64,000 nt of DNA from an uncultured Atopobium sp. (GCA_916715765.1 CAKAPG010000003.1:4125-68124); one strand, 5' to 3'; positions 1,563-64,000 are shown, counted from the first letter of the stretch. Notes: generated by a model not told the origin, from the sequence alone. Made by a program: numbers and translations.

Positions 1563-1674
1563 CACACTCGGCGCACGTCCAGCACGTCCTTCTCGCGAGA
1601 AACCCGGTGCACTCCAAGGTCTTCTCGCTGTGCACGCCCCACCGCACACGACAATAAAAGCGCAGCTTAAATGC

Positions 1675-2127
1675 TTACTCAGCAGTGGGATTGTCGGCGG
1701 GGGAGACGTGCATGTTGCCTTCGTTGCGGGCGATGTCCGCGAGCGTCTTGCTGTCCAGGAAACTGGAGGTCATGCGGCCAAGGTCTCGCCAGACATTGAT
1801 GGTGGTGCAAGACTCCATCTGGGGGCAGAGTGTGGTGTTTGTGCAGCTCAGACAGCTGGCAGGCGCAAGATTGCCTTCGGCTGCGCGAAGAATCTCGCCC
1901 AGCGTGTAGTCCTCGGGCTTGCGCGTGAGGCGATAACCGCCGCCCTTTCCGCGCAGACTCTCGACGTATCCAGCCTTGTGCATCAGGGCAATGACCTGCT
2001 CAAGGTACTTGCGCGAGATGTTCTGGCGCTCGGAAACGTCGCCCAGCGAGACCCAGCCCTCGTGAACGGCCAGGTCAGCCATTGCGCGAAGCGCGTACAT
2101 TCCCTTTGTAGAGAACATTCCGGCCAC
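1675..2127 (-). CDS. Rrf2 family transcriptional regulator (IscR/CymR-like)
   Basis: FSTKGMYALRAM, SRKYLEQV, SLRGKGGGYRL and a Cys cluster CLSC...C...C; start probably GTG 2127 or ATG 2118, just after the sufU stop. Confidence 0.9.
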   Translation of the reverse strand: MAGMFSTKGMYALRAMADLAVHEGWVSLGDVSERQNISRKYLEQVIALMHKAGYVESLRGKGGGYRLTRKPEDYTLGEILRAAEGNLAPASCLSCTNTTLCPQMESCTTINVWRDLGRMTSSFLDSKTLADIARNEGNMHVSPADNPTAE

Positions 2128-2129
2128 GG

Positions 2130-2642
2130 CTACTCGCCGTCCTTGGCGCTCGCGGCGTTGGCGCTCTCGGCGCCGTCCTCGGTGGTTGACGCGCCAGCTG
2201 CGGCGGAACCGCTGTTGTGGGCCTCGAGCATCTCCTCGAGTGTGTGCCATGCCAGCTCGGCGCACTTAACGCGCGCAGGCATGTGTGCGATGTCGTGCAG
2301 AATGTTTGCGTCTTCCAGCTGGTCAAGCACAGCCTCGTCAGTTTCTTCTCCGCGAATCATGCGCCCAAAGAGTTTGCAGAGCTCAATGGCCTCTTCTGGA
2401 GTGCGGTCAATCATCAGGTCGCTCATAATGTCGGCGGACGCCTGAGAGATTGCGCATCCGCTACCCACAAAAGCAGCCTCGGCAATCTTTCCGTCCTCAA
2501 TACGCACGGAAAACGTCAGCTCATCGCCACAAGAAGGGTTAACGCCCTCGTGAGAAACGGTAGGGTTGTCCATCTGATATTTGTAATCGGGGTGAGAAAC
2601 GTGGTCCATAAACTCAGCGTTATACAGGTCGTTTGCTGCCAC
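2130..2642 (-). CDS. sufU: SUF system sulfur-transfer protein SufU
   Basis: NPSCGD, GCAISQAS and RVKCA motifs; follows sufS. Confidence 0.93.
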   Translation of the reverse strand: MAANDLYNAEFMDHVSHPDYKYQMDNPTVSHEGVNPSCGDELTFSVRIEDGKIAEAAFVGSGCAISQASADIMSDLMIDRTPEEAIELCKLFGRMIRGEETDEAVLDQLEDANILHDIAHMPARVKCAELAWHTLEEMLEAHNSGSAAAGASTTEDGAESANAASAKDGE

Positions 2643-2659
2643 TTATTTCAACTCCTTGT

Positions 2660-3931
2660 TTATTTGCTGCTGACCGCGCTGCCAAAGATCTTCCATACCT
2701 GGTTAAGACCCTCGATTAGCTGGTCAATATCGTGTTTATCGTTGTAGAACGCAACGGATGCGCGGCAGGTGCTGGACTCGTGCAGCTCAATCAAAAGCGG
2801 CTCGGCACAGTGATGACCAGCGCGAATGCAAACGTTGTTCATGTCCAGGATGCTCGAGACGTCGTGTGGATGAACGCCGCGCACGTTAAACGCCACAGCG
2901 CCCACGTGGTTCTGTCCCAGCTTAGAGCCTACGATGTCAACAAAGTCCAGCGTGCACAGTTGCTGCACCAAGTACCTGGCGAGAAGTTCTTCTCGCTTCT
3001 CGATCTTTGCCATGTCCAAGCCGTTGAGGTATTCGACAGCAACACCGGTAGCATAGATACCTGCAGCGTCCTGCGTACCTGCCTCGAACTTCTCGGGAAC
3101 GGGAGCCCAAACGGCGCTGGTCTCGGTGACGGAATCAATCATCTCACCGCCGGTAAGGAATGGCGGCATGGCATCAAGCAGCTCAGAGCGGCCCCAAAGC
3201 ACACCAATGCCCATAGGTCCGCACATCTTGTGTGCCGAGAAAGCCAATAGGTCGCAGTCAAGATCGTGCACGTCAATAGGGATGTGAGGTGCAGACTGAG
3301 CGGCGTCGACTACCATGTAAGCACCCACAGTGTGACCGCGCTTAGCAATGGCCTTGATGTCATTACGGGTGCCCAGCACGTTGGAGACGTGTGTGACGGA
3401 CACAATCTTTGCTCGCTCGGTGATCTTTGATGCAATCTCTTCAGGCGTAATCTGATACTGCGAGTTCATGCGCAGGTACACCAGGTTTGCACCGGTAGCC
3501 TTGCAAATCTGCTGCCAAGGGATGATGTTAGAGTGGTGCTCCATGATGGAAATGACCACGTCATCGCCTGGTTTAAGCGCATAGCGACCAAGGCTTGAAG
3601 CAACCAGATTAAGCGCCTCAGAAGTGTTGCGCGTAAAGATAATCTGACGGTCTTCTGGCTTGCCGTTTTTATCGACAGCGCCAATGAACTTTGCAATCGA
3701 AGCGCGAGCACCCTCGATAGCTGCGGTTGCTTCCACACTCCAACGATACAGTCCGCGTAGGGCGTTTGCGTTCATGGTCTCGTAGAAGCGCGACTGCGCC
3801 TCAATAACCTCGCGTGGACGCTGAGAAGTAGCAGCACTGTCCAAGTACGCTACCTCGGGATTTGCTGCCAGAAGTGGAAAATCTGCCTTGTAAGGATTAT
3901 CGGTAATCTGAGCAACTTCTGCGTCGGTCAT
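2660..3931 (-). CDS. sufS: Cysteine desulfurase SufS
   Basis: YLDSAATSQRP, SAHKMCGP (PLP Lys) and RAGHHCA (group II). Confidence 0.96.
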   Translation of the reverse strand: MTDAEVAQITDNPYKADFPLLAANPEVAYLDSAATSQRPREVIEAQSRFYETMNANALRGLYRWSVEATAAIEGARASIAKFIGAVDKNGKPEDRQIIFTRNTSEALNLVASSLGRYALKPGDDVVISIMEHHSNIIPWQQICKATGANLVYLRMNSQYQITPEEIASKITERAKIVSVTHVSNVLGTRNDIKAIAKRGHTVGAYMVVDAAQSAPHIPIDVHDLDCDLLAFSAHKMCGPMGIGVLWGRSELLDAMPPFLTGGEMIDSVTETSAVWAPVPEKFEAGTQDAAGIYATGVAVEYLNGLDMAKIEKREELLARYLVQQLCTLDFVDIVGSKLGQNHVGAVAFNVRGVHPHDVSSILDMNNVCIRAGHHCAEPLLIELHESSTCRASVAFYNDKHDIDQLIEGLNQVWKIFGSAVSSK

Positions 3932-15167: not shown

Positions 15168-15413
15168 GAAAGCTCCAAGTTCTTCTCGCCCTGTGAGAGG
15201 GCTCATGTGTATCAATTTCAGTCTAGCGTAAAAGTGTGACGGTAAGTTATTTATTCCTCGTGAATCTCCACTAAGTTTAGATTGAGAGGATTCGACTAAA
15301 CGTTGGAGAGTACAATGGTTTATCTATGAGCAAGAACGCGCCGTCTACGCGTTTTTGCCGTCTTGAAGGAGCTTTCCGATTTGGCACAGGGAAGCAAAGA
15401 CGAAAGGATAAAA

Positions 15414-17240
15414 ATGGATTGTTCTTCAGAAAACCCCCAGAATTATTCCGCTCACGCAGCTGTTGATTTGCACAGCATGCATACGCATACCTGCGGAGAG
15501 CTTCGTGCAGAGCATATCGGTCAGACCGTTACGCTCACTGGTTGGGTTTGGCGTCGTCGTGACTTTGGTGGCCTAATCTTTGTTGACCTCCGTGACCGCG
15601 AGGGTTTGACCCAGATTCTGTTTGACCCAGATGTTGATGCAGAAACATTTGCGACTGCAGAGACTATTCGTCCTGAGTGGCCTGTTTTGATTTCTGGTAC
15701 GGTTCAGCATCGCTCTGAAGGCCAGACCAATGAGGCTCTTGCTACCGGTGAGGTAGAGGTACTTGCTTCCAAGATTGAGGTTCTTAATACTAGCGCTGTT
15801 CCACCATTCCAGATTGAGAACCACATTGATGTTAATGAGGACCTTCGCTTGAGGTATCGCTACGTTGATCTTCGTCGTCCTCAGATGGCACAGAACCTTC
15901 GCATGCGTTCTGATTTTGCCTTTGCGCTTCGTGAGGCATTCCATAAGCGTGACTTTACCGAGGTAGAAACTCCAGCACTGTTCAAATCTACTCCTGAGGG
16001 AGCTCGTGACTTCCTGGTTCCATCCAGAATGCAGGGCGGAAACTTCTACGCGCTGCCACAGTCTCCACAGCTGCTGAAGCAGTTGCTGATGATTGGCGGC
16101 GTTGAGCGCTACTATCAGATTACTAAGTGCTTCCGCGATGAGGACCTTCGTGCAGATCGTCAGCCTGAGTTTACACAGGTTGATATGGAGATGGCATTTG
16201 TCCGCGAGGAAGATGTCATGGCCGAGCTTGAGGATATTCTGGGCGATGCATTTGCAAAGATGGGCATTGAATTCCCAGCTCCACTGCGCAAGATTCAGTA
16301 CTGGGACGCAATGGATACCTACGGCTCCGATAAGCCTGATACTCGCATTGGCATGGAACTTCATGATGTTTCCGAGGTCTTCAAGCAGTCCAGCTTTAAG
16401 CTCTTTAGCTCTGCCGCAACAACAGAAGGCCAGTACGTTAAGGCAATCAACGTTAAGGGTGCAGGTACCTGGCCACGCTCTCAGGTAGATAAACTTGCCG
16501 AGGTAGCTGCCGGCTTTGGTGCCAAAGGACTTGCATGGGTTGCCTTCAAAGAGGACGGTTCCGTGGGAGGTCCTATCACCAAGTTCTTCTCGCCAGAAGA
16601 GCTCGAGGCACTGCGTGCAGAGATGTCTGCTGAGGCAGGAGACTTGATTCTCTTTGCCGTGGGTGGTCGCCTGGAGACAGATGAGATTCTTGGTGGTATG
16701 CGCCTGCATATGGCAAAGGTCTTGGATGTACCGCGAGAAGGTCATGATTTCCTTTGGGTTGTTAATTTCCCACTGTTCCACTGGGATGAAGAAACTCAGT
16801 CTTACGCTTCTGAGCATCAGCCCTTTACGCTTCCTCGAGAGGATGAGCTTGACCTTCTGGACACTGACCCTCTGGCTATGGGCTCGTATACCTACGACTT
16901 TGTCATGGATGGCTTTGAGGCTGGCGGCGGCGGAATGCGTATTCACAATGCTGAGCTGCAGCTTAAGATTCTGGAGAAACTCGGCTTTACTGAAGAGCGT
17001 GCAAAGGCTCAATTTGGCTTCTTGATGGAGGCTCTGACGTTTGGCGCACCTCCAATGGGCGGCTTTGCACTTGGTCTTGACCGCGTATGCATGTTGCTTG
17101 CAGGTGCCGATTCCATCCGTGATGTCATGGCATTCCCAAAGACTACTTCTGGCTCTGATTTGATGTCGAGCGCTCCTTCGCCTGTTTCTAATGAGCAGCT
17201 CAAGGAGGTTTCGCTTCAGACGCTTCCAAAAGAGGCATAA
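15414..17240 (+). CDS. aspS: Aspartate--tRNA ligase
   Basis: THTCGEL, STPEGARDF, LPQSPQ, FRDEDLRADRQPEFTQ, GAPPMGG, FPKT; ATG 15414 after GAAAGGA. Confidence 0.97.
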   Translation: MDCSSENPQNYSAHAAVDLHSMHTHTCGELRAEHIGQTVTLTGWVWRRRDFGGLIFVDLRDREGLTQILFDPDVDAETFATAETIRPEWPVLISGTVQHRSEGQTNEALATGEVEVLASKIEVLNTSAVPPFQIENHIDVNEDLRLRYRYVDLRRPQMAQNLRMRSDFAFALREAFHKRDFTEVETPALFKSTPEGARDFLVPSRMQGGNFYALPQSPQLLKQLLMIGGVERYYQITKCFRDEDLRADRQPEFTQVDMEMAFVREEDVMAELEDILGDAFAKMGIEFPAPLRKIQYWDAMDTYGSDKPDTRIGMELHDVSEVFKQSSFKLFSSAATTEGQYVKAINVKGAGTWPRSQVDKLAEVAAGFGAKGLAWVAFKEDGSVGGPITKFFSPEELEALRAEMSAEAGDLILFAVGGRLETDEILGGMRLHMAKVLDVPREGHDFLWVVNFPLFHWDEETQSYASEHQPFTLPREDELDLLDTDPLAMGSYTYDFVMDGFEAGGGGMRIHNAELQLKILEKLGFTEERAKAQFGFLMEALTFGAPPMGGFALGLDRVCMLLAGADSIRDVMAFPKTTSGSDLMSSAPSPVSNEQLKEVSLQTLPKEA

Positions 17241-24152: not shown

Positions 24153-24419
24153 GACGAGAAACCCTTCTTACGCTCGAAGAATACTGCTTTCTTTTTCAAA
24201 TTGTTACCGTTTTATGAACTGAAAAAATTACTTTTACCTGGTCTTTATTGGATAGAATGACTAAATAATAGTCATTTATATAAAGAAGTTGTTCTTCTCG
24301 CCATTTTTATGCAATAAAGATGAGAAATACGATAAAAATTATAAGTAGATTTTTCATATTTGCTTCCTATAATTCATTCCAATGAATTTCAGCTCAGATT
24401 TATTCAGGAAGAGGCAGAT

Positions 24420-25376: not shown

Positions 25377-26855
25377 GTGATTGCACTTTTGCACAAAACT
25401 ATGTCAGGACAGCAACTGTTCTTGTGCATGTCATCTGCGAGTTTCAATGCTGAATCTGCGCCTCAGAGTCTGGCTCATGATTCGGCTGAGTCAAAGTGCT
25501 TACATATTCGCGCGTGCTCCTCACTGCTTGTAGTACTTCTCGCCACATTGCTTTTGAGCGGATTGTTCTTTATGTCCCTAAGCGCATTTTCTGCTCAGAG
25601 CGCGTTTGCTCTTACTACAAATAAAGCAACGGTCAAGTCAAACCAGACGGAAGGCAACGGTGTTATTGGCGGCAAAGAGACCCGTTTGACCTGGGAGGGA
25701 ACAGTTGAAGACGAGCAGGTCTCTCAGCTGACGTTGCAGCTTCCCGAGGGCTCTGATTTGCAGAATGCAACCACTAAGGTGACCGTTCTTTCAGGTCTTA
25801 CGCGCGAGAAGATCGAGGCAACTGCAAGCGTTCAAGGAACCCAGGTTGTTATTTCTTTTGCAACACCGGTGGACGCTCAGAAGCTGATTCGCGTAGAGAT
25901 TTCTGGCATGAAGTTTCCCGCTGACGGTGGCTCGTACACTGTTGAAGGAACCTATACCACTGAGCAGGGAACTCAAAAGCTTGCTTCTTCTCCTCAAATC
26001 AACATTATTTCTAATACGCCTGTTCAGGCTATAGTGAATTGGCTTGACGCTCAGCCTTGGGTTGAAGCATGGAACTCCAATCACTTCTTGGGCATGTTCT
26101 TAAAGCCTCAGCTGATTGTTTCTTCCGTTGTAATGCTGTTCCCTGGATGGCTGGTTTGTCTGGCAATTGTCATTTGCGCTTATCCCGTGGCTATTGTGCT
26201 GGGAATGGGATTTGCCCTGCTTAAGATTTCTAAAAATCCGCTCCTGCGCGCGCTTGCAGTGGTATACATCAATCTGTTGCGCGGAACCCCATTTTTCCTG
26301 CAGATTTATATTCTGTTCTTTGGCCTTCCTATGCTGAATATCAATTTGGACACTAATTTGCTTGGCTTTATTGTGGTTGCCATTAACTCTTCTGCGTATC
26401 TTTCAGAGATCTTCCGTGCGGGCATTCAGTCGATTCCACAGGGTCAGTATGAGGCAGCAAGCTCTTTTGGTATGAATCGTTTCCAGACCATGACGTTTAT
26501 TATCATTCCTCAAACTATCCGCCGAGTAATCCCACCTCTTACCAGCGACTTTATTACGTCCTATAAAGATACTTCGCTGCTTTCTTCTGTAGGTGTTATG
26601 GAGCTAATGATGTTCGCTAAAAACCTCACCACCTCAACGGGAAACATGACGCCCTACATGACAGCGGCTCTGTTCTATTTGGCAATTACACTGCCACTTA
26701 TTAAGGTGGTTGGCAGTATCGAGAAACGCATGGAGCAGTCAGAAACAGGCAAAACCGTAAGCACTGCAGCAAGCGCTACAGTAAGCACTGCAGTAACCAC
26801 TGCAGTAAGCACCACAGCCGATAAGGCTCAAGCTCTTTCCAAGGAGGAAAACTAA
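25377..26855 (+). CDS. Amino acid ABC permease with an extra N-terminal extracytoplasmic domain
   Basis: C-terminal HisM-type RGTP and [23 protein letters not shown]; start uncertain (GTG 25377 after AAAGGAG). Confidence 0.88.
26757..26816 (+). repeat. In-frame 12-bp tandem repeat x5 (GTAAGCACTGCA-like)
   Basis: Encodes [20 protein letters not shown] at the permease C-terminus. Confidence 0.8.
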
Positions 26856-27715
26856 TGTCGTTCTTTTCTTTTAAAAAGAAATCAAACATAGAACATCCTG
26901 CCTTGGATGCTGAAGTTGCTGCACAAGAGGCATACAAGCGCGATAAGCCTCTTACTAACCACGCTTTTGAAGCAGGCGAGCATCCTATTGTTCGTATTGA
27001 GCACCTTAATAAGTCATTTGGTACCACGCCTGTTTTGCATGACGTAAATCTTACTGTTTGGCCAGGTGAAGTAGTGGTTGTACTTGGTCCCTCGGGCTCT
27101 GGCAAGTCCACCATGCTGCGTTGTATCAATCTGCTTGAGACTCCTTCGGCAGGCCATATTCTTATCGAAGACCAAGAGATTACGGGTACAAATGAAGCCG
27201 AGGTTAATGCCCTTCGTAGAGACGTGGGAATGGTCTTCCAGCAGTTCAATCTGTTTGGTCATTTAACGGTTAAAGAGAACGTAATGATTGGTCAGATTAA
27301 GGTTCTAGGAAAGTCAAAAGAGGAGGCAGAGGCAGAGGCTCTCAAGCAGCTTGAGGCTGTTGGTCTTGCCGATAGAGCAGACTTCAAGCCTGGCGCACTT
27401 TCCGGTGGACAGCAGCAACGAGTGGCTATTGCACGCGCTGTGGCAATGCATCCCAACGTGCTTCTTTTTGACGAGCCTACTTCCGCGCTTGATCCCGAGC
27501 TTGTCCGTGGTGTTTTGGACGTCATGCGCGACTTGGCAAAGAACTCTGGCATGACCATGATTGTGGTAACTCACGAGATGGGCTTTGCAAAAGACGTGGC
27601 AGATCGCGTGGTCTTTATGGAAGGAGGAGTGGTAGTTGAGCAAGGCACTCCTGATGTCATTTTCAACAATCCACAAAACCCTCGAACAGCTGAGTTCATT
27701 GGCGCTATTGCGTAA
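26855..27715 (+). CDS. Amino acid ABC transporter ATP-binding protein (GlnQ-like)
   Basis: [36 protein letters not shown]. Confidence 0.94.
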
Positions 27716-27759: not shown

Positions 27760-27785
27760 TAGGGCGGGAAAATCTTCTCGCCCTA
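27760..27785. terminator. Hairpin formed by an inverted TTCTCGC motif pair (one copy imperfect)
   Basis: TAGGGCGGGAA-AATC-TTCTCGCCCTA. Confidence 0.6.
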
Positions 27786-41746: not shown

Positions 41747-41804
41747 ACAACATGTTTTTGCACGTAGATGATGTAGTAATTGATACAACTTGTTAGGATT
41801 TGAA

Positions 41805-42701
41805 ATGAACTTCTTTGAAAATACTTCCACTTCTCTTTCTCGCCGTGCTTTCCTTGGTGCAAGCGCACTTTCTGCTGCAGCTCTTCTGGCAGCTTGCAAG
41901 AAAAAGGATTCTGACGGAGCTCAGGGTGGATCTTCTGATACAGACTCAAAGTTTAGAACCCTTGATGACATCAAGAAGGCAGGCACGGTAAATATCGGTG
42001 TCTTCAGCGATAAAGCTCCTTTTGGTTACGTTGATGCAAACGGTAATTACGCTGGTTACGACATTGTTTTTGCAGAGCGCCTTGCAAAGGATATGGGCGT
42101 CAAGATCAACTACATTGCCACTGACGGACAGAACCGCGTACCTTTCTTGCAGTCCAATAAGGCAGATATTATGCTGGCAAACTTTACGGTAACCGATGAC
42201 CGTAAAGAGAAGGTTGATTTCTCTCTGCCATACATGAAGATTAAGCTGGGTGTTGTTTCTCCATCCTCTGCGCCAATCACAGACGTTTCTCAGCTTGACG
42301 GCAAGAAGCTTATTGTTTCTAAGGGAACCACAGCTGAGGTCTGGTTTGCTAAGAATGCACCTAAGGTTGAGCTGGTCAAATTTGACAGCTATGCTGATGC
42401 GTATAACGCGCTGCTCGACGGCCGCGGCGATGCTTTCTCAACCGATAATACCGAGGTACTTGCGTGGATCAAGTCTAACCCTGGCTTTGTTGTTGGTATT
42501 GATGACCTGGGCGACTCCGATACTATTGCTGCTGCGGTTCACAAGGGCAACTCCTCGGTGTTGGAGTTTATCAACAACGAGATTACCGGCCCTCTTGCAG
42601 AGGAGAACTTCTTCCACAAGGATTATGAAGAGACCCTTGCTCCAATTTACGGCGACGAGGTAGATCCAAACAACATTGTCGTCGAGGGCGGCAAGATCTA
42701 A
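41805..42701 (+). CDS. Cysteine-type (CjaA-like) ABC substrate-binding lipoprotein
   Basis: SRRAFLG plus lipobox LAAC; IGVFSDKAPFGYVD, ANFTVT, PYMK, TDNTE. Confidence 0.85.
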   Translation: MNFFENTSTSLSRRAFLGASALSAAALLAACKKKDSDGAQGGSSDTDSKFRTLDDIKKAGTVNIGVFSDKAPFGYVDANGNYAGYDIVFAERLAKDMGVKINYIATDGQNRVPFLQSNKADIMLANFTVTDDRKEKVDFSLPYMKIKLGVVSPSSAPITDVSQLDGKKLIVSKGTTAEVWFAKNAPKVELVKFDSYADAYNALLDGRGDAFSTDNTEVLAWIKSNPGFVVGIDDLGDSDTIAAAVHKGNSSVLEFINNEITGPLAEENFFHKDYEETLAPIYGDEVDPNNIVVEGGKI

Positions 42702-42758: not shown

Positions 42759-42795
42759 CGCGAGAAGGCCTTGCAGCTTGTAAGGTCTTCTCGCG
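42759..42795. terminator. Hairpin formed by an inverted TTCTCGC motif pair
   Basis: CGCGAGAAGGCCTTGCA-GCT-TGTAAGGTCTTCTCGCG then TTTGT. Confidence 0.7.
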
Positions 42796-43896: not shown

Positions 43897-43921
43897 TTAA
43901 GTAGGCTTTATATAATGCATA

Positions 43922-43967
43922 TGAACTGCCTCCCATTTCTTATGTCCAAGAAATGGGAGGCAGTTCA
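43922..43967. mobile_element. Collapsed IS3-family-like inverted-repeat pair, copy 1
   Basis: 46-bp palindrome TGAACTGCCTCCCATTTCTT...AAGAAATGGGAGGCAGTTCA with TG...CA ends. Confidence 0.55.
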
Positions 43968-44205
43968 TATGCGGGTGATTATGATTCTGCAGCGTGTTAG
44001 CGTCGGCTTTTAGGCCTGGCGCACAAAATAGCGCAGCTTTGGTAGGTTTTGCTGAAGAATTGACATGTTCCTAATCAAGATAGCCAGGCAGCTAGGCGGT
44101 CGCACTACCCGATATGCATCTTTATGCATAAACTTCATCTAATATGCTTAAATATGAATAGACTTATATAAGAAATTTAACTATCGATAAATTCTGTATC
44201 TTCGG

Positions 44206-44336
44206 AACACACCTAAGTAAGATATTCTGCTCAGATGCGGGCATTTTACACATCTAATAAAGATAATCTGCATGATTAAGGTATTTTCAGCGTCATGTAT
44301 ACGTCTTTTTGACAGATTATCTGACTTAGGTGTGTT
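44206..44336. repeat. MITE/REP-like 131-bp element with 24-bp inverted repeats
   Basis: AACACACCTAAGTAAGATATTCTG (44206-44229) versus the reverse complement of 44313-44336: 22/24 match. Confidence 0.65.
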
Positions 44337-44337
44337 T

Positions 44338-44383
44338 TGAACTGCCTCCTATTTCTCGTGTCTAAGAAATGGGAGGCAGTTCA
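44338..44383. mobile_element. Collapsed IS3-family-like inverted-repeat pair, copy 2
   Basis: TGAACTGCCTCCTATTTCTCGTGTCTAAGAAATGGGAGGCAGTTCA, near-identical to 43922-43967. Confidence 0.55.
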
Positions 44384-44406
44384 CAGAAGAGGGTTTTATT
44401 CACCGG

Positions 44407-44688
44407 TTAAAGAAAATAAATGATGTGGCTTATCTCGAATATAAGCGCAAGTATGAGGAAAACTAAGAACAAAATTCTTACCCCTTTTTTGATACCGCTT
44501 TTAAAAAAGACATAAAAATCGATAACCTCAGTCAGAATTAATACTAGAAAAAATAGTAATGGTGGAATAAGTCCCTGTTTCCACAGTAGCCGCATTCCCT
44601 GATAAGCCAGAAAACTGACCAATATTACAATACGAACTGTTTTTCTAGAAATCGGTTCTGAAAAATTAAAAATCTTCTCACCAAACAT
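44407..44688 (-). CDS. Small low-GC membrane protein (93 aa, about 3 TM)
   Basis: ATG after AGGGAGG; hydrophobic; AT-rich. Confidence 0.65.
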   Translation of the reverse strand: MFGEKIFNFSEPISRKTVRIVILVSFLAYQGMRLLWKQGLIPPLLFFLVLILTEVIDFYVFFKSGIKKGVRILFLVFLILALIFEISHIIYFL

Positions 44689-44805
44689 ATCTGTTGCCTC
44701 CCTATGGACAACAAGAGCAGTTTATTTGTTGCTAAAGATTGTAATACTGTCTATTAACCTCGTAGTATATAACTATAGTAATTTAACTTGTGATTGGAGG
44801 TGCGT

Positions 44806-52003: not shown

Positions 52004-52028
52004 TTATTTGAATACGGAGAAGTACTTT

Positions 52029-54674
52029 ATGGCTGACTATAAAACAATGACAACAGCAGAGATTCGCGAGGACTTCCTAAGCTTCTTTGAGAGCAAGGGT
52101 TGCAAGCGCTACCCTTCTTCATCTCTGGTGCCTTCTGATCCTTCGCTGCTTCTTGCTAATGCTGGCATGAACCAGTTCAAGGAATATTACCAGGGCATCA
52201 AGACTATGAAGGAGATTGGCGCAACTTCCTGCCAGAAGTGCCTTCGTACTAACGATATTGACAACATTGGCGACTCTCGCCATCTCTCATTCTTCGAGAT
52301 GCTGGGTAACTTCTCCTTTGGTGGTTACACCAAGCGCGATGCATGTACCTGGGCAATGGAGTTTATTTCTTCTCCAGAGCACCTTGGCCTGCCTCTTGAT
52401 CGCCTGTACTTTACTGTTTTTACTGACGACGATGAGGCAATTGAGATCTGGAAGTCTCTTGGCGTAGCAGAAGACCACATCACCCGTCTGGGCGAGGAGG
52501 ACAACTTCTGGGCAGCTGGTCCAACTGGTCCTTGCGGTCCTTGCTCCGAGATTTACTTTGACCAGGGTCCTGAGTTTGAGGGAGAGGCCCCTGGAGACGA
52601 TGGCGACCGTTACCTTGAGTTCTGGAACCTCGTCTTTACTCAGTTTGACCGCCAGGAAGATGGTTCTCTACCTGAGCTTCCTCACCGCAACATCGATACC
52701 GGCATGGGCCTTGAGCGTATTGCAGCTATCATGCAGCATGAGGGCACCAACTACGAGGGTGACATCATGCGTTCCCTCATTTCTTTGGGCGAGAAACTCT
52801 CTGGTAAAAAGTATCACACAACTGACGAGATTGACCGCAGCTTGCGCATTCTTGCAGACCACTCCCGTGCAGTTACCTTTATGATTGGCGACGGTATTCT
52901 CCCTGGTAATGAGGGCAGAAGCTACATCCTTCGCCGCCTGCTCCGTCGCGCTGTCTACCACGGCCGCTTGCTGGGCATCCAGGGCACCTTCATGGCAGAG
53001 TACGCACATGAGGTTGCCGTTCTGCTTGGCGCAGAATACCCAGAGCTTGTCGAGAAGAGCGCTCTTATCGACGGCATTTTGACCGCAGAAGAGGAGCGCT
53101 TTGGCGCTACGCTTGACGCAGGCGAGTCCAAGCTCACCGCTGAGCTTGAGCAGCTTGAGGATGGCGCTCAGCTTTCCGGTGAGGTTGCATTCCTTCTGCA
53201 CGATACCTACGGATTCCCTATTGATCTTACTCGTGAGATTGCTGCAAATGCAGGTCACGTTGTTGACATGGACGCCTTTGACGCTGCAATGACAGAGCAG
53301 CGCGAGCGTGCTCGTGCATCTGCTAACCGCGATGCCTGGGGTAATGCTCAGAGCGTCTGGGTTGCACTCTCTGACCGCCTCGATGAGACCGTCTTTGACG
53401 GCTACGACAACAACGAGCTCTCTGGCGTTCGTGTTGTTGCCCTTGTTCAGGACGGACAGGAGGTTGAGTCCGCTGCTGCAGGCTCTGAGGTTGAGGTTGT
53501 ACTTGACCGTACGCCTTTCTATGCAGAGATGGGCGGTCAGGTTGGTGACACCGGCAAGCTGACAGCTCCTGGTCTCTATGTTCACGTCACTGACACCAAA
53601 CATCGCGACGGCGGACTTGAGTCCCACGTTGGCGTGGTAGAGGAGGGCACCATCTCCGTTGGTGACTCTGTCACCGCAACCATTGATGCTGGCCGCCGTG
53701 AGCTTATCCGCCGCAACCACACGGCAACTCACCTGCTTGACGCAGCACTCAAGAAGGTTCTGGGAGATCACGTTAACCAGGCTGGTTCTCTTGTTGCCCC
53801 AGATCGTATGCGCTTTGACTTTACGCACTTTGAGGCTCTTACCAAAGATGAGCTTGATCGCATTGAAGGCATGGTCAACGCAGAAATCTTTGCTGCTAAG
53901 CCTGTTGTCACTCAGATCATGAGCATCGAAGATGCAAAGGCTGCTGGTGCTGTTGCCCTCTTTGGCGAGAAGTACGGCGATGTTGTACGTGTTGTTTCTG
54001 CTGGCGCAGAAGATGCTCCATTCTCTCGCGAGCTCTGTGGCGGTACTCATGCACGCAACACTGCTGACCTTGGCCTCTTCAAGATTATTTCTGAGAGCTC
54101 CGTCGGTTCTAACTCAAGGCGTATTGAGGCTGTAACCTCTATGGGCGCTATTGAGTACGTTGATGAGCGTCTGGCTCAGCTTGATGAGGTTGCTGCAGCT
54201 CTGAAGGTTCGTCCTTCCGCTGTTGCAGACCGCGTTGAGCAGCTGCAGCAGGACCTTCGCACTGCAAACCATAAGCTTGAGGCTGCTCTTACTGGAGCAG
54301 GTAGCAACCAGGTAGCAGAAGCACTTAAGTCTGCTGTTCAGCTTAACGGCTATAGCTGCGTAATTGCTAAGCTTGAGGGCCTTTCTGGCAAAGAGCTCCG
54401 CTCTGCATGGGATGGTATCCGCGATGCATCTGACGGCCAGCCTGTTGCTTGCGTCATCGCATCCGCAACCGCTGACGGTAAGGTTTCTCTGCTTGCAGGT
54501 GCAACTGATTCTGCAGTTGCAGCGGGTTTCTCGGCAGGAGACATTGTCAAAGAGATTGCAGAGCTTGTTGGTGGTCGCGGTGGCGGCAAGCCAGCAATGG
54601 CACAGGCAGGCGGTTCAAATGCTGCAGGAATTGACGCAGCACTTGAGGCTGCAAGAACAAAGCTTGGTGCGTAA
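52029..54674 (+). CDS. alaS: Alanine--tRNA ligase
   Basis: ANAGMNQFK, FFEMLGNFSFG, GPCGPCSE, IDTGMGLER, NHTATH, ELCGGTH, GGRGGG. Confidence 0.98.
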   Translation: MADYKTMTTAEIREDFLSFFESKGCKRYPSSSLVPSDPSLLLANAGMNQFKEYYQGIKTMKEIGATSCQKCLRTNDIDNIGDSRHLSFFEMLGNFSFGGYTKRDACTWAMEFISSPEHLGLPLDRLYFTVFTDDDEAIEIWKSLGVAEDHITRLGEEDNFWAAGPTGPCGPCSEIYFDQGPEFEGEAPGDDGDRYLEFWNLVFTQFDRQEDGSLPELPHRNIDTGMGLERIAAIMQHEGTNYEGDIMRSLISLGEKLSGKKYHTTDEIDRSLRILADHSRAVTFMIGDGILPGNEGRSYILRRLLRRAVYHGRLLGIQGTFMAEYAHEVAVLLGAEYPELVEKSALIDGILTAEEERFGATLDAGESKLTAELEQLEDGAQLSGEVAFLLHDTYGFPIDLTREIAANAGHVVDMDAFDAAMTEQRERARASANRDAWGNAQSVWVALSDRLDETVFDGYDNNELSGVRVVALVQDGQEVESAAAGSEVEVVLDRTPFYAEMGGQVGDTGKLTAPGLYVHVTDTKHRDGGLESHVGVVEEGTISVGDSVTATIDAGRRELIRRNHTATHLLDAALKKVLGDHVNQAGSLVAPDRMRFDFTHFEALTKDELDRIEGMVNAEIFAAKPVVTQIMSIEDAKAAGAVALFGEKYGDVVRVVSAGAEDAPFSRELCGGTHARNTADLGLFKIISESSVGSNSRRIEAVTSMGAIEYVDERLAQLDEVAAALKVRPSAVADRVEQLQQDLRTANHKLEAALTGAGSNQVAEALKSAVQLNGYSCVIAKLEGLSGKELRSAWDGIRDASDGQPVACVIASATADGKVSLLAGATDSAVAAGFSAGDIVKEIAELVGGRGGGKPAMAQAGGSNAAGIDAALEAARTKLGA

Positions 54675-56411: not shown

Positions 56412-56420
56412 TTGGTGTCT

Positions 56421-57531: not shown

Positions 57532-58664
57532 GTGACAATGTTCAGGCTGAGCTTGAAGAGGAATTGCCACCTGTTCAGATTAAACAGTGGGTTTCTATTC
57601 CTGGCGGCTCTATTGCACTTCGTTCTGGTGCCGGCGTTCTTTCAAACTTTGGTACTGAGCTCAGAACCGCAGTGGGAAGACCTCATCGCTGTGCTTTTCT
57701 TGTCAGCAATCAGGTAGACGAAGACCTTGCTGAGCTGCTGCGTAGAGACCTCACCACCATCGGTTTTCTCGTCACACGTGTAGATGTAGAAGATGGCGAG
57801 GCAGCAACTACGGTGGCAGCTGAGGCACAGGTATTGTCTGCTTTGGCAGAAATGCACCTGACAGCTGATGATCTGGTAGTTGCCGTGGGCCACGAGGGCG
57901 TCATTTCTCTTGCTAACCACGTGGCAAACAAGTGGTGTGGGGGAGTTTCCCTTGCTACTGTTCCACTTGATTTAGCAGCAGTTATTGTCTCGTCTATTAC
58001 TCCTCGCGCGCTTGATACTGACGCTGAACATCAGCGTCTTGTTACCACTAAGCCTTGTGCTCGTTTCTGCTTTGCAGATCTTGAGGTTATGGACCTTTGC
58101 GATGACAACGCTAAGGTTGCCCAGGTATGTATGGTTGCAACGGCTATGTCTGATAACGAGGCGGAATTTGGTCGCATTTGGGATAGAGCAGATAACCTCT
58201 CCTCTGGAGTTGCCGATATAGTTGCAGAACAGCTGGCAGAGTCTACTAAGACCCGTGGCCGCCTTTCTGATTCTTCCGCTATTGCTATTCAGCAGTCTGT
58301 TCCTTACGGTTGGGTTTTTGTGGAGGCACTTCGCCCGCTCATTCCAGCTGATCAGCCTCTTTCTGCACTTTATGCAGACGCACTGCGTTTCTCGGCAAGA
58401 ATCGCGGTAGCTAAAGAGGCGCTTTCTTTTGACGATATGCTTGCCCAAGACGAGATTCTTGAGCGCTTGAATATTGGCTTTGTTACCTGTGACATTACTT
58501 CTGAGCAGCTTATCGAAGCGCTCAAACAGGAATGTTTCCGTTCTACTAATCGTTTTATGTTGCCGATTCCAATGTCTATTGGAAGGGTAAGATTAGCATC
58601 GGTCGACGAGGAACTTCTCGCCGAGCATGCCCGCGCTTGGTGTGAGGCTCACGCTTCGCATTAA
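57528..58664 (+). CDS. 3-dehydroquinate synthase-like protein with a degenerate active site
   Basis: Position after aroK, length and residual pattern (VEDGE, LTADDLVVAVG, FMLP...IG) fit AroB, but the catalytic motifs are missing. Confidence 0.7.
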   Translation: MSDNVQAELEEELPPVQIKQWVSIPGGSIALRSGAGVLSNFGTELRTAVGRPHRCAFLVSNQVDEDLAELLRRDLTTIGFLVTRVDVEDGEAATTVAAEAQVLSALAEMHLTADDLVVAVGHEGVISLANHVANKWCGGVSLATVPLDLAAVIVSSITPRALDTDAEHQRLVTTKPCARFCFADLEVMDLCDDNAKVAQVCMVATAMSDNEAEFGRIWDRADNLSSGVADIVAEQLAESTKTRGRLSDSSAIAIQQSVPYGWVFVEALRPLIPADQPLSALYADALRFSARIAVAKEALSFDDMLAQDEILERLNIGFVTCDITSEQLIEALKQECFRSTNRFMLPIPMSIGRVRLASVDEELLAEHARAWCEAHASH

Positions 58665-58755
58665 AGCGTCGCATCTTGCAGTAAGGAGCCTGTTTGCTGA
58701 GGCGACACCACAAGGTGCAACTCTTTGTTGTAAACATCTCGAGAAGGGATTTGAA

Positions 58756-59880
58756 ATGGCAGATCTACAGGCAGCAGCAAAGCGCGTTGCGCGCTTTCGC
58801 GAGGTAATGGCTCAGAGGGGTTACGACGCTGTTGTTCTACGTCACAACCCAGACCTTCGTTGGTTGACTGACGCTGAGCGTGTCTTTGACTTTGAGCAGG
58901 CACATACTGCATTTATTACGCAGGATGAGCTCTTCATGCACACTGACTCTCGTTACTACAACACATTCCTGGAGCGCCTTGGTGCTGATTCTCCATGGAA
59001 GTTTGACCAGGAAGTCACTACCCCTACTGAGTGGGTTGCCGCTCATATTGCTGAGGCTCGTGCTCGCGTAGTTGCTATTGAGGACACCGTTGATCTTGCG
59101 TTCTTTGATGGCCTTGAGCAGGCATTACGTGATCGTTCTGTTGCTGCTTTGCTTCCACGCATGCATGGTGATATTGCTGAGCTGCGTATTGTTAAAGACC
59201 CAGCTGAGATTGAGCTTATGAAGCACGCTCAGTCAATTACTGACAAGGCGTTCCTCCACATCTGCGAGTACATCAAGCCTGGCCTCACTGAGCAGCAGAT
59301 CCGTGCAGAGCTTGAGAACTACATGCTCTCCAACGGCGCAGATGCTCTGTCCTTTGATTCCATCATTGCTTCTGGTCCTAATGGTGCTAATCCTCACGCT
59401 CAGCCAGGTGAGCGCGTAGTTCAGACAGGCGACATGATTGTTATGGACTACGGTGCGGGCTACCTGGATTACCACTCAGACATGACCCGTACCGTTGTTG
59501 TTGGTGCACCTTCCGAGGAGCAGCAACACGTCTTTGACGTTGTTCGCAAAGCAAATGAGACGTGCGCTGCAGCTATCCATGCAGGCGTAACTGGCTCTGA
59601 CATTCACAACCTTGCAGTCAAGGTTATCTCTGAGGCTGGTTACGGCGAGTACTTTGGTCACGGTCTTGGCCACGGTGTTGGCGTTGAGATTCACGAGCGT
59701 CCATTCTTCAACCCACGCTGGAACAAGGTTATTGCAGCAGGTTCTGTTGTTACCGATGAGCCTGGCATTTACCTGCCTGGCAAGTTTGGTATCCGTCTTG
59801 AAGACTTTGGTGTTGTTACTGAGAACGGCTACGATGTCTTTACTCAGTCCACACACGATCTTGTGTCTGTTGGCTGCTAA
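58756..59880 (+). CDS. Xaa-Pro aminopeptidase (M24 family)
   Basis: TDSRY, SFDSIIASG, PH, DYG...SDMTRT, HGLGHGVG, EPGIY, RLED. Confidence 0.93.
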   Translation: MADLQAAAKRVARFREVMAQRGYDAVVLRHNPDLRWLTDAERVFDFEQAHTAFITQDELFMHTDSRYYNTFLERLGADSPWKFDQEVTTPTEWVAAHIAEARARVVAIEDTVDLAFFDGLEQALRDRSVAALLPRMHGDIAELRIVKDPAEIELMKHAQSITDKAFLHICEYIKPGLTEQQIRAELENYMLSNGADALSFDSIIASGPNGANPHAQPGERVVQTGDMIVMDYGAGYLDYHSDMTRTVVVGAPSEEQQHVFDVVRKANETCAAAIHAGVTGSDIHNLAVKVISEAGYGEYFGHGLGHGVGVEIHERPFFNPRWNKVIAAGSVVTDEPGIYLPGKFGIRLEDFGVVTENGYDVFTQSTHDLVSVGC

Positions 59881-59903
59881 TTAGCTACGATATACAGAAT
59901 TTT

Positions 59904-59941: not shown

Positions 59942-59946
59942 GTTCG

Positions 59947-59978
59947 TTTTAGGGCGAGAAGGTCTTCTCGCCCTAAAA
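59947..59978. repeat. Perfect palindrome made of an inverted TTCTCGC motif pair
   Basis: TTTTAGGGCGAGAAG-GT-CTTCTCGCCCTAAAA. Confidence 0.85.
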
Positions 59979-60129
59979 TTGGCTTATAAAAACAAAATAA
60001 TCTAAAAAGAGTTAGGTTAGTGAAGACACGCTTCAGATATATGTAATAAAATCAGAAAAGTAAATGTTATTTTCATTGTTATGTTTACAGTTTCATTTGT
60101 TTTATTAGGTAGAAAAGAAGGAGGTAGAA

Positions 60130-61131: not shown

Positions 61132-61147
61132 CTAGAAGGAGGTAGAA

Positions 61148-61963: not shown

Positions 61964-61984
61964 TTCTGAAGGAGCGTGAAACTA

Positions 61985-62902
61985 ATGGAGAATAAGATTC
62001 AGCTTTCTAAGAAAGACCGCATGTCTGTTGCTCTTCGTCATCAGTTCCTTCAGGGTTCTTGGAACTACGAGCGTATGCAGAACGGTGGTTGGGCATTCTC
62101 AATGATTCCAGCCATCAAAAAGCTTTATCCAAACAAAGAAGATCAGGTAGCAGCTCTTAAGCGCCACCTTGAGTTCTACAACACTCACCCTTATGTTTCT
62201 GCACCAGTCATGGGCGTTACCCTTGCACTGGAGGAGGGACGTGCTAACGGTGAGCCTATTGACGACGTTGCAATTCAGGGCGTTAAGGTAGGCATGATGG
62301 GCCCTCTGGCCGGTGTTGGTGACCCAGTCTTCTGGTTTACCGTCCGTCCAATTCTTGGAGCACTCGGCGCATCTATTGCCGCTGGTGGTTCTGCACTTGG
62401 CCCTATTCTTTTCTTTGTTCTGTGGAACGTCATCCGCCTTTCCTTCCTGTGGTACACCCAGGAGTTTGGCTACAAGGCAGGTGCCTCAATCTCTTCCGAT
62501 CTTTCTGGCGGCATGCTGGGCAAGATTACCGAGGGTGCTTCTATTCTTGGTATGTTTATCATTGGCGCCCTGGTACAGCGCTGGGTTTCAATTTCATTTA
62601 CCCCAGTTGTTTCTACCATTCCTCAGCAGGCAGGTGCCTACATTGATTGGACAAGTATTCCTTCAGGAGTAGAGGGAATGCACCAGGCATTAAAGCTTTA
62701 CGCTGCACTTGGACCAAACGGTCTTGATCCAGTGAAGGTAACCACACTTCAGTCCAACCTTGATTCCCTTGTTCCTGGACTGGCAGCTGTTGGTCTGACA
62801 CTGCTCTGCTGCTCACTGCTTAAGAAGAAGGTCTCTCCAATTGCTATCATCCTGGCTCTCTTTGCCGTTGGTATTATTGGTCGACTCCTTGGCTTTATGT
62901 AA
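61985..62902 (+). CDS. manZ: PTS mannose family IID
   Basis: GSWNYERMQ, FYNTHP, MMGPLAGVGD. Confidence 0.95.
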   Translation: MENKIQLSKKDRMSVALRHQFLQGSWNYERMQNGGWAFSMIPAIKKLYPNKEDQVAALKRHLEFYNTHPYVSAPVMGVTLALEEGRANGEPIDDVAIQGVKVGMMGPLAGVGDPVFWFTVRPILGALGASIAAGGSALGPILFFVLWNVIRLSFLWYTQEFGYKAGASISSDLSGGMLGKITEGASILGMFIIGALVQRWVSISFTPVVSTIPQQAGAYIDWTSIPSGVEGMHQALKLYAALGPNGLDPVKVTTLQSNLDSLVPGLAAVGLTLLCCSLLKKKVSPIAIILALFAVGIIGRLLGFM

Positions 62903-62989
62903 TGAGTAAGCGTACGTTCTAGTACTTAAAGTCGCACGAATATGGGTCGCGCTCTATAATGGGTGCGACCCATTTTTTGAAAGGATTGT

Positions 62990-63397
62990 ATGGCTCAGTC
63001 TCAAAACAGTACGGTTGACTTCACCGCAAAGGCAACGTCATTTCACGGGCTAGCTACGTATGGCGATATCCTTATTGGTAATAAGGCCTTTGAGTTCTAC
63101 AACCAGAAAAATCCTGAAGATTACATTCAAATTCCTTGGGATCAGATAGATCATGTGGCCGCCTCAGTTATGGGGCGTACCAAAAGCATTTCTCGCTTTG
63201 CTATCTTTACTAAAAGCAATGGTAACTACTCATTTTCTACGCGAGACAATAAAGCAACACTAAGGGCAATTCGCGCCTATATAGGGAAGGAGAAACTCGT
63301 ACGTTCTCCAAACTTCTGGTTTGTCTTTAAGCATGGACTCATGGCAATTCCACAGCTTCCTCGCCTTATTAAAGAGAGTTTTATTAAAAAGAAGTAA
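62990..63397 (+). CDS. manO: DUF956 family protein (ManO)
   Basis: MAQSQNS, YGDILIGNKAFEFYN, YIQIPW; follows the man PTS genes. Confidence 0.88.
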   Translation: MAQSQNSTVDFTAKATSFHGLATYGDILIGNKAFEFYNQKNPEDYIQIPWDQIDHVAASVMGRTKSISRFAIFTKSNGNYSFSTRDNKATLRAIRAYIGKEKLVRSPNFWFVFKHGLMAIPQLPRLIKESFIKKK

Positions 63398-63533
63398 GCA
63401 AATTTTGCATTTTCACAAGAGCCGCCAGCACGGAAGGCGTGAAACTGATAAAATCCAACATGCATATACGTGTCGCGGGTAGTTTGAAAATTCACGTTCT
63501 TCTCGCGACTTTACCGAGTGAAAAGAGTTAGAC

Positions 63534-64000
63534 GTGGCAACTATCAGCACCGCAGATTTTAAGAACGGCCTTGGCCTTAAGATTAACGATAAGTACTACA
63601 CCATCGTTGAGTTCCAGCACGTAAAGCCAGGTAAGGGCGGCGCTTTTGTCCGCTATAAGATTCGTGACCTTCGCTCTGGCCGCGTTATCGATCAGACCTG
63701 CAACGCTGGCACCAAGTTTGAGAACGTTCTTCTGCTCACCAAAGAGATGCAGTACCTCTACAACGACGGCGAGTCCTTCTACTTCATGGACAATGAGACT
63801 TACGATCAGGTAGCTGTTCCTGCTGATTTCATTGGCGAGAAGAGCGTCTGGTTCAAGGAGAACGATAACGCACAGCTTCTCTACGCAGACACTGAGCTTC
63901 TTGGTGTTGAGCCTCCAATGTTCATTGAGGCAGAGATCACTGAGACTGACCCAGGCTTCAAGGGCGACACCGTTCAGGGTGGTACTAAGCCAGCAACTAT
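63534..64000 (+). CDS. efp: Elongation factor P (partial, runs off the window; absent from the ORF track)
   Basis: GTG start, MATISTADFKNG...VEFQHVKPGKGGAFVR...TDPGFKGDTVQGGTKPA. Confidence 0.96.
   Translation, partial: MATISTADFKNGLGLKINDKYYTIVEFQHVKPGKGGAFVRYKIRDLRSGRVIDQTCNAGTKFENVLLLTKEMQYLYNDGESFYFMDNETYDQVAVPADFIGEKSVWFKENDNAQLLYADTELLGVEPPMFIEAEITETDPGFKGDTVQGGTKPAT

Follow-up and report, generated by a model that had tools for sequence, protein, structure and literature searches.

A dispersed, strand-symmetric TTCTCG word in the genomes of Atopobiaceae as a candidate DNA-uptake signal

The genome of an uncultured Atopobium sp. is marked throughout with a short DNA word, G-N-N-Y-TTCTCG, that recurs about once per kilobase in both orientations. 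We describe this word in a stretch of 64,000 nucleotides (GCA_916715765.1, CAKAPG010000003.1:4125-68124; hereafter the window), in the remainder of the same assembly, and in relatives across the family Atopobiaceae. The word is abundant, symmetric between strands, conserved among relatives, constrained at individual sites, and excluded from mobile DNA, and the genomes that carry it encode genes for DNA uptake. It is a real, selected DNA-level signal that characterises core DNA and is read whichever way it faces; maintenance by selection or molecular drive over the core chromosome of many Atopobiaceae is the best explanation. We propose tentatively, at somewhat less than an even chance, that it is a DNA-uptake (self-recognition) signal comparable to the DNA uptake sequences (DUS) of Neisseriaceae and the uptake signal sequences (USS) of Pasteurellaceae. 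This is the best-fitting reading of a function that is predicted only.

Sequences, gene maps, and controls

The window is positions 4125-68124 of contig C3 in a 1.24-Mb assembly of 22 contigs, with a GC content of ~47-48% and an estimated completeness of 82.6%. Its gene map was made with our own crude caller, which combines open reading frames (ORFs) with a codon score and yields 991 genes (86% coding) for the whole assembly. The gene maps of relatives are likewise rough, the samples of relatives measure 40-100 kb, and the relatives are not mutually independent. Over-representation is given relative to a reversed control, that is, the same pattern read backwards, which ignores codon usage. Counts refer to the source genome unless a relative is named.

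An earlier reading of the window's sequence (the original prediction) had drawn attention to TTCTCGC as a candidate uptake-sequence-like motif and had assigned the DNA to a Coriobacteriia lineage. The assignment was right: the nearest named records are titled 'Atopobium sp.' (Atopobiaceae). Loci for alanyl-tRNA synthetase (AlaRS) at 98-99% identity carry this title, and the more distant ones belong to Olsenella, Tractidigestivibacter, Parafannyhessea, Olegusella, and other Atopobiaceae.

Abundance and anatomy of the word

TTCTCGC and its complement GCGAGAA are found as 64 exact copies in the window, 39 on the plus strand and 25 on the minus strand. Across 100 dinucleotide-preserving shuffles of the window the count is 9.66 +/- 3.33, with a maximum of 18, and none of the 100 reaches 64. 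The original prediction had counted about 60 by eye, and all 26 of its example coordinates are present in our list. Genome-wide, TTCTCGC is the commonest 7-mer (1083 copies) and TTCTCG the commonest hexamer (2198 copies); the top word at each length from 6 to 12 contains TTCTCG, including TTCTCGCC (554 copies), TTCTCGCCA (346), and GGGTTTCTCGCC (88).

The genome-wide logo of TTCTCGC copies extends beyond the seven letters. A G stands at position -4 in 77% of all copies (84% of intergenic, 69% of sense coding, and 82% of antisense coding copies), position -1 is C or T in 87%, position +1 is C in 51% and G in 20%, position +2 is A in 48%, and information ends within about 13 nt. When the last C of TTCTCGC is swapped for A, G, or T, both the enrichment and the upstream G are kept; changes at any of the other six positions abolish both. 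The unit is therefore G-N-N-Y-TTCTCG, usually followed by C-C-A, with the C at the seventh position optional. The flank bias reported in the original prediction is thus real (Y at -1, C or G at +1), but the unit is not TTCTCGC as written there, and the G at -4 was only implied.

In this 10-mer form the word is found 1389 times across the genome, or 1.12 per kb; the reversed control yields 318. The window holds 110 bare TTCTCG hexamers, and its extended sites are distributed as follows:

1586..63845, both strands: 72 G-N-N-Y-TTCTCG sites, 39 on the plus strand and 33 on the minus strand, 64 of the 72 inside ORFs

Spacing is near Poisson apart from the largest desert of the genome (variance/mean 0.80 per 5 kb), and there is no overall clustering of copies, with 219 close pairs observed and 219.7 expected.

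Placement within and between genes

Copies of the 7-mer occupy five of the six combinations of reading frame and orientation: 122, 128, and 184 in the three sense frames and 22, 280, and 99 in the three antisense frames, with a further 248 intergenic. Shuffling synonymous codons within genes leaves far fewer: 434 sense copies are observed against 141 +/- 13, and 401 antisense copies against 149 +/- 10.5. For the form extended by G and Y the figures are 259 against 28 +/- 6 (sense) and 287 against 33 +/- 4 (antisense). Coding copies therefore lie 3-9 fold above codon-preserving shuffles in this 47% GC genome, and an artefact of codon or dipeptide usage, which the original prediction had named as the outcome that would undo it, is rejected for the source genome by within-gene synonymous shuffles and codon-order shuffles alike.

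Intergenic DNA is richer still. The 7-mer stands at 1.43 per kb between genes and 0.78 per kb within them, and the 10-mer at 1.61 and 1.05 per kb, though intergenic GC is only 42%. By type of gap, the 10-mer is densest between convergent genes (2.34 per kb), followed by tandem (1.57) and divergent (1.00) gaps; tandem gaps contain 107 sense sites and 58 antisense ones. The expectation that copies would fall disproportionately between genes is borne out by these densities genome-wide but not by the window, where only 8 of the 72 extended sites are intergenic or at gene edges.

Paired copies and hairpins

Where adjacent intergenic copies lie at most 60 nt apart, the order CGAGAA..TTCTCG accounts for 28 pairs and the opposite order for 6. 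The inverted pairs form near-perfect stems, for example GGCGAGAAGATC-loop-GATCTTCTCGCC. Predicted stems hold 111 of the 250 intergenic sites (44%), with strong stems at 93, compared to 69 of 250 (28%) and 43 for random intergenic hexamers; the other 139 sites lie outside any predicted stem. Rfam has no family at the motif hairpins, its sole hit in the window being the leader of aspS.

Three hairpins downstream of genes had been singled out in the window, and all three fold strongly:

42759..42795, plus strand: inverted-pair hairpin (CGAGAAGGCC ... GGTCTTCTCG), -28.9 kcal/mol, z -6.45, with none of 200 shuffles as stable
59947..59978, plus strand: perfect palindromic hairpin made of an overlapping inverted pair (GGGCGAGAAGGTCTTCTCGCCC), -24.9 kcal/mol, z -5.85
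27760..27785, plus strand: hairpin after the ABC ATPase gene 26855-27715, -18.7 kcal/mol, z -3.93

The hairpin at 42759 starts 58 nt past the stop codon of a solute-binding-protein gene (41790-42701). That at 59947, downstream of an M24 peptidase gene (58627-59880), is bordered by a T-run and an A-run and looks like a bidirectional terminator. The one at 27760 carries TTCTCGC in its 3' arm only; its 5' arm is a degenerate copy with G-U pairing.

Strand and replichore symmetry

The word shows no replichore polarity. We oriented 10-kb bins of the source contigs by GC skew and found 7-mers on the G-rich strand in a ratio of 521:463, or 410:350 at a stricter threshold (53-54%), while AGGGGAG in the same bins is split 79:4. 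The closed chromosome of a same-genus relative, G060 (1,599,921 bp), has cumulative GC-skew turning points 800 kb apart; 833 of its 1697 G-N-N-Y-TTCTCG sites (49.1%) are on the leading strand, compared to 93.5% (158:11) for AGGGGAG. These shares uphold the original claim of no strand polarity. In the available text of PMC3384302, crossover hotspot instigator (Chi) sites and FtsK-orienting polar sequences (KOPS) are over-represented and significantly skewed to the leading strand beyond GC skew; the TTCTCG word is unlike Chi in having no such skew. A polarity-dependent Chi or KOPS role is rejected on the same figures, 49.1% and 53-54% on the leading strand as against 93-95% for the AGGGGAG control.

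AGGGGAG is of interest in its own right. Together with GGGGGAG and GGGGAGT it lies almost entirely on the leading strand in both the source contigs and G060, and it is a strong candidate, from its distribution, for the KOPS-like guide word of FtsK/SpoIIIE in this genus.

Distribution across Atopobiaceae

Relatives keep the word, as the original prediction's proposed check on conservation had anticipated. GNNYTTCTCGC exceeds its reversed control 8.9-13.2 fold in 18 of 18 same-genus genomes. Across 61 genomes of the family (34 genera), GNNYTTCTCG is enriched at least 3-fold in 34 genomes from 23 genera, with a maximum of 10.8, and falls below 1.5 fold in 11. None of the 61 shows an imbalance between forward and reverse counts, and the enriched genomes span 47-67% GC with the core unchanged. 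The 3' flank varies: in one genus TTCTCG-G-C-A replaces -C-C-A. Outside the family, two genomes of the order have comparable density, G026 (761 sites, 122 reversed) and G217 (932 sites, 145 reversed). Another, G065, was set aside: its order-level value of 5.8 fold is a low-count ratio, and its 60-kb sample is not enriched.

Since the reversed control ignores codons, the synonymous-shuffle test was repeated on the 40-100-kb samples of relatives. The sense-strand form is 3.3-6 fold above shuffles in G163, G207, G026, G217, and G088, and 2.4 fold above in G204, where it rests on only 8 sense-strand sites; intergenic density in these six is 0.7-1.6 per kb. In the samples of G143, G236, and G187 there is no excess over shuffles, and intergenic sites number 0.06-0.17 per kb. 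One frame, xxC-GAG-AAR-xxC, is largely explained by codons in high-GC relatives (for example 41 observed and 23.8 expected, or 25 and 13.2), and reversed-control ratios therefore overstate enrichment in those genomes; motif-free high-GC genomes still stand 1.5-1.9 fold over the reversed control. The upstream G is present at 65-79% of copies in G163, G207, G026, and G217 and at 54% in the smaller G204 sample. Both this G and an intergenic density of 0.9-1.6 per kb are kept in relatives of 60-67% GC.

A second 'dialect' word, CACCCACA, was considered in a motif-poor genome and rejected, as its copies are really local tandem arrays with a period of ~20. In G236 (C1:100001-200000), GCACCCACACGG has 37 copies in 100 kb against 3.6 expected, mostly in tandem arrays of period ~20 that often follow GGGAGAAA-like stretches. 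This is a local repeat family separate from the TTCTCG word.

Conservation of individual sites

Single sites persist across genera. In an alignment of AlaRS genes from 24 taxa of several genera (GC 50-70%), one site of the window recurs at the same codon position in most of them:

53966..53975, minus strand: motif site in alaS (52008-54674), at the same codon-alignment position in 20 of 24 Atopobiaceae AlaRS genes

Other alaS sites are common to fewer taxa, namely those at 52790 (8/24), 53051 (2/24), and 54524 (10/24).

Constraint was measured in 31 relatives at ~94% nucleotide identity over window positions 41977-64000, with 29-37 sites. At 29 sites, divergence is 0.000-0.027 for the six positions of TTCTCG and 0.017 for the upstream G, compared to 0.060 for the flanks; the free positions N, N, and Y diverge by 0.059, 0.086, and 0.110. 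The fixed positions of the motif evolve about 4-5 times slower than the flanks, and the constrained positions follow the motif, not the codon phase. Of the 461 hexamers that occur 15 times or more, TTCTCG/CGAGAA ranks first in conservation (0.0154; the median is 0.051), with several others close.

Scarcity in mobile and low-GC DNA

The two largest motif deserts of G060 (68048-86840 and 1013052-1032746) hold one site each where ~20 are expected. Both are inverted copies of a single ~19-kb integrative and conjugative element (ICE) of 39-43% GC, placed about 0.93 Mb apart in the 1.6-Mb chromosome; its genes encode a MobA/VirD2 relaxase, a NikA-like protein, a VirD4/TraG coupling protein, PrgI, a cell-wall hydrolase (glucosaminidase), and an rve integrase. 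A defence island of 9 kb (G060:C1:1276385-1285391) accounts for the third desert. Two ICE copies and a defence island are thus nearly free of the motif, which is the depletion in acquired DNA that the original prediction had proposed to look for. The island itself encodes an ABC-3C protein (CTD10), a DUF2326/AAA_23 protein, an AbiEi/AbiEii pair, and a 734-aa fusion of PARG and ADP-ribosylglycohydrolase.

The source genome follows the same pattern. Its low-GC 5-kb windows carry 0.10 sites per kb (2 windows). The largest desert, C1:24895-34361, measures 9.5 kb at 37% GC with three predicted genes, and is probably either acquired DNA or a large atypical surface-protein gene. Two low-GC stretches of the window, which had been reported without the 7-mer, indeed lack it:

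311..1354, plus strand: low-GC ORF, 34.7% GC, 347 aa, no Pfam family, no 7-mer and no extended site
43897..44793, no strand: low-GC gap, 36.3% GC, including 44407-44688 (32.3% GC), no 7-mer and no extended site

The ORF at 311-1354 holds one bare TTCTCG hexamer and is probably acquired DNA.

Uptake machinery and candidate readers

Competence and pilus genes, which the original prediction had suggested looking for, are present. The source genome encodes ComEC (808 aa), ComEA, and DprA, together with a complete Tad/Flp locus (C5:58000-72000) for a SAF/CpaB-like protein, a TadZ-like ATPase, TadA, two T2SSF proteins (TadB and TadC), and a TadE-like protein. A 62-aa pilin of this locus, which has no Pfam match, appears Flp-like from its N-terminal motif. 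The pilin, the TadE-like protein, and unassigned proteins of 82, 154, 152, and 713 aa are candidate receptors only; the 713-aa protein has no Pfam family, contains a Cys/His-rich stretch, and is found in 61 of 61 Atopobiaceae genomes at 35-47% identity. Flp/Tad pili drive transformation in another actinobacterium, Micrococcus luteus, according to the available text of PMC4322843.

Readers of other kinds were sought as well. An AddA/AddB-like pair lies beside priA (C10:7741-14409); the AddA-like protein matches TIGR02785 at 4.3e-83, below the curated cut-off, and its partner is a PDDEXK protein. Neither RecC nor Vsr was found in this 82.6%-complete genome. There is one C5 methyltransferase, adjoining a 447-aa nuclease with two MutH-domain matches (C6:3277-5994); the nuclease is probably Sau3AI-like, judging from its domains, and would form a GATC restriction-modification pair with the methyltransferase. 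No N6/N4 methyltransferase is common to five motif-positive genomes, as PF01555 occurs in one and PF02384 in three of the five, at unrelated loci.

A tentative uptake-signal reading and its relation to known systems

Neisseriaceae and Pasteurellaceae are the only groups for which the available text of a recent preprint (bioRxiv 10.1101/2025.10.24.684340) describes sequence-specific uptake of DNA. The reason for its evolution is a matter of debate. The DNA uptake enhancing sequences (DUES) discussed in that text are both intragenic and intergenic; the intergenic ones are often inverted repeats in terminators, with about half in predicted terminators. DUS density has also been used for ICE detection, as reported in the available part of PMC7371117. 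In every sequence-level property of DUS and USS that we examined, the TTCTCG word agrees with them: abundance, symmetry, placement, dialects, scarcity in mobile DNA, and machinery genes.

The word is like the DUS of Neisseriaceae in occurring ~1/kb on both strands without replichore bias, in and between genes, with terminator-like inverted pairs, family-wide with dialects, and depleted in ICEs. It is unlike DUS (10-12 nt, bound by the minor pilin ComP) in that its sequence is unrelated and its hosts are monoderm Actinomycetota with a Tad/Flp rather than a type IVa pilus; it is also shorter and gapped (~7.5 specified positions), enriched 4-10 fold, and 82% intragenic, and it is known here from sequence alone. 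Most copies of Pasteurellaceae USS lie in coding DNA, and USS sites are found at orthologous positions between species. The word shares these two properties with USS (9-nt core plus flanks), as well as the weaker information of the flanks and the inverted pairs downstream of genes; it differs in its unrelated sequence and lineage, its much lower enrichment, and a logo with no AT-rich phased flanks.

Other dispersed words offer partial likenesses. Chi (5-8 nt) is likewise a short, asymmetric, over-represented word of core DNA, and an AddAB-like enzyme is encoded here. KOPS and the SpoIIIE recognition sequences (SRS) are over-represented oligomers, and the reverse complement of our word contains GAGAAG as does the Bacillus subtilis SRS, but strong polarity is theirs, and here it belongs to AGGGGAG. 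The highly iterated palindrome HIP1 of cyanobacteria occurs at ~1 per kb, is non-polar, lies in and between genes, has an unsettled function, and is tied to a cognate methyltransferase. The TTCTCG word resembles it in density, in placement, and in a patchy spread over its phylum; unlike HIP1 it is asymmetric, and no methyltransferase is common to the motif-positive genomes searched. Repetitive extragenic palindromes and bacterial interspersed mosaic elements (REP/BIME) and repeats of the miniature inverted-repeat transposable element (MITE) type also form hairpins from intergenic inverted copies, but these are longer, intergenic-only units, whereas 82% of our sites are single intragenic copies.

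If the word is an uptake signal, a surface component of the transformation machinery would bind double-stranded DNA that carries it. Such a binder would act together with the conserved Tad/Flp pilus and with ComEA; ComEC would then let the DNA through to DprA and RecA, so that fragments from kin would be preferentially taken up and recombined. The word would then spread over time wherever it is tolerated, in all reading frames and in paired copies that double as terminator stems, and recently acquired elements would lack it. This scheme supposes that some protein binds the word, that this protein is part of the uptake machinery, and that transformation takes place in these bacteria in the first place. 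In its widest form, which we consider possible but hold with more doubt than the general proposal, the word would represent a third, independently evolved uptake-sequence system and the first in a Gram-positive group (Actinomycetota). It would be read by a component of the Tad/Flp locus or by ComEA and would bias transformation toward kin DNA in oral, gut, and vaginal communities, and the motif-free genera would have lost or changed the specificity.

Several observations weigh against an uptake signal. Competence and Tad genes are as common in motif-free genera as in motif-rich ones: in phyletic profiling, all 61 genomes have TadA, ComEA, ComEC, and the 713-aa protein, 59 have the AddB-like protein, and none of these tracks the motif. 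The presence of uptake genes therefore does not discriminate. In four genomes the ComEC match ends before residue ~531 of 808, in ORFs of 539-610 aa; these are both genomes of the most motif-poor genus (g25) together with G286 (g91) and G280 (g99), of which one stands at 6.0 fold and the other at 2.3 fold. No word-specific receptor candidate emerged from our searches. No report of natural competence or of an uptake sequence in Atopobiaceae was found in the open-access papers searched, and a literature search with the motif words returned no bacterial paper. Enrichment over the reversed control, from 4.4 fold (10-mer) to 9.7 fold (11-mer), is far below that of DUS and USS, which amounts to orders of magnitude. 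A word with ~7.5 specified positions is met by chance about once in 4 kb (the control has 318 matches in 1.24 Mb); it would discriminate foreign DNA poorly. Intragenic single copies make up 1139 of the 1389 sites (82%), and strong hairpins are found at only about one third of intergenic sites (93/250) as against about half of DUES in terminators. Lastly, positions shared across genera, depletion in ICEs, and site constraint would fit any conserved host-specific function. The original prediction's uptake interpretation is partly supported: it is favoured by the sequence-level tests and weakened by the genes shared with motif-free genera, the 4-10 fold enrichment, and the intragenic majority.

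Alternative explanations

The word could instead be the binding site of an abundant conserved chromosomal protein, whether nucleoid-associated, chromosome-organising, or another genome-wide reader, that uses ~1 site/kb in either orientation. We judge this unlikely, while recognising how much it accommodates: the even and non-polar density (variance/mean 0.80 per 5 kb; 49-54% on the leading strand), sites that are constrained and kept at orthologous positions across genera, a core that is the same over 47-67% GC and so calls for a conserved reader, and a motif without phyletic tie to competence genes. It does not predict the density peak in convergent gaps or the terminator-like paired stems, no candidate protein was found, and we know of no nucleoid protein that makes its own site the commonest 6- to 12-mer of a genome. 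A reading as a Chi-like signal is less probable again. An AddAB-type helicase-nuclease would recognise the word on single-stranded DNA, stop degradation, and load RecA; such a signal would mark self DNA and serve two-ended breaks, so that it would not need to show replichore bias. The AddA/AddB-like pair next to priA, the length, density, and over-representation of the word, its absence from mobile DNA, and the motif-poor state (1.5-1.65 fold) of the only genus without an AddB match (0/2 genomes) all suit this reading. Yet the leading-strand share is 49.1% and 53-54% where the AGGGGAG control reaches 93-95%, AddB is present in five other motif-poor genera, and AddB proteins are only 27-37% identical among motif-positive genera while the word is unchanged; enrichment between genes and in terminators is, to our knowledge, no recognised trait of Chi.

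We give little credence to the word as a by-product of sequence-specific repair or modification that turns near-cognate words into it, in the manner of very-short-patch repair or HIP1. The word does contain a CpG, the genome encodes one C5 methyltransferase, and HIP1 supplies a precedent. No single-substitution neighbour is strongly depleted, however (relative to the order-3 Markov expectation, TTCTTGC reaches 0.95 and TTCTCAC 0.80), and with deamination neighbours not depleted a very-short-patch-like footprint is disfavoured. The search of the 82.6%-complete genome found no Vsr, the C5 methyltransferase is read as part of a GATC restriction-modification pair, the five motif-positive genomes share no N6/N4 methyltransferase, and a mobile restriction-modification system would hardly persist unchanged through 23 genera. 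That the word chiefly represents a consensus stem, whether of intrinsic terminators or of some other RNA hairpin, with coding copies incidental, we regard as very improbable. Very stable intergenic hairpins just past genes, the high density of convergent gaps, and the 107 to 58 sense bias in tandem gaps speak for it. On the other side, coding DNA holds 1139 of the 1389 sites; its copies face either way (434 of the 7-mers are sense, 401 antisense) and exceed codon-preserving shuffles 3-9 fold. In addition, 139 of 250 intergenic sites lie outside predicted stems, and Rfam has no family at the hairpins. An artefact of codon, dipeptide, or composition bias we consider next to negligible. It is favoured by the frame xxC-GAG-AAR-xxC, mostly explained by codons in high-GC relatives, and by the 1.5-1.9 fold excess over the reversed control in motif-free high-GC genomes. 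But shuffles fall 3-9 fold short in the 47% GC genome, five of six frame-orientation classes are populated, intergenic DNA is richest, even high-GC relatives have 3.3-6 times as many copies of the sense-strand form as their shuffles, and constraint follows the motif and not the codon phase.

An uptake signal in these bacteria, if true, would provide an independent case in a monoderm actinobacterial family with a Tad/Flp pilus, on which models of drive and of selection could be tested, and would suggest that natural transformation has gone unnoticed in common human commensals and opportunists. The word could be used as a marker of core versus acquired DNA, as the ICEs showed up as deserts. It may also offer a handle for genetic tools in these bacteria, which are difficult to manipulate. 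Were it not an uptake signal, a family-wide, selected, non-polar word at ~1/kb would still define a new genome-wide DNA reader.

Further sites and neighbouring features in the window

Some copies in the window are paired without folding strongly, and others are single:

1596..1627, plus strand: inverted pair CGAGAAACCC ... GGTCTTCTCG with a third copy at 1586-1595, weak fold (z -1.63)
2980..2995, no strand: inverted pair with overlapping copies, within the cysteine desulfurase (Aminotran_5) gene 2660-3931, no significant fold (z -1.0)
24155-24164 (minus strand) and 24291-24300 (plus strand): two unpaired intergenic sites, single copies, between glnA and the next operon

The pair at 2980 lies within coding sequence, and inverted pairs are therefore not limited to intergenic DNA. 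The pair at 1596 has the low-GC ORF 311-1354 on one side and the 3' end of the suf operon on the other. Two overlapping long ORFs without a Pfam match, 1513-2445 (plus strand) and 1675-2265 (minus strand), are called in this same interval; they may be non-coding DNA with three motif copies rather than genes.

The aspS leader RNA (Rfam RF02930, 81.2 bits) occupies 15330-15408 on the plus strand, directly upstream of aspS. The gene is listed as 15363-17240, and its true start is probably further downstream.

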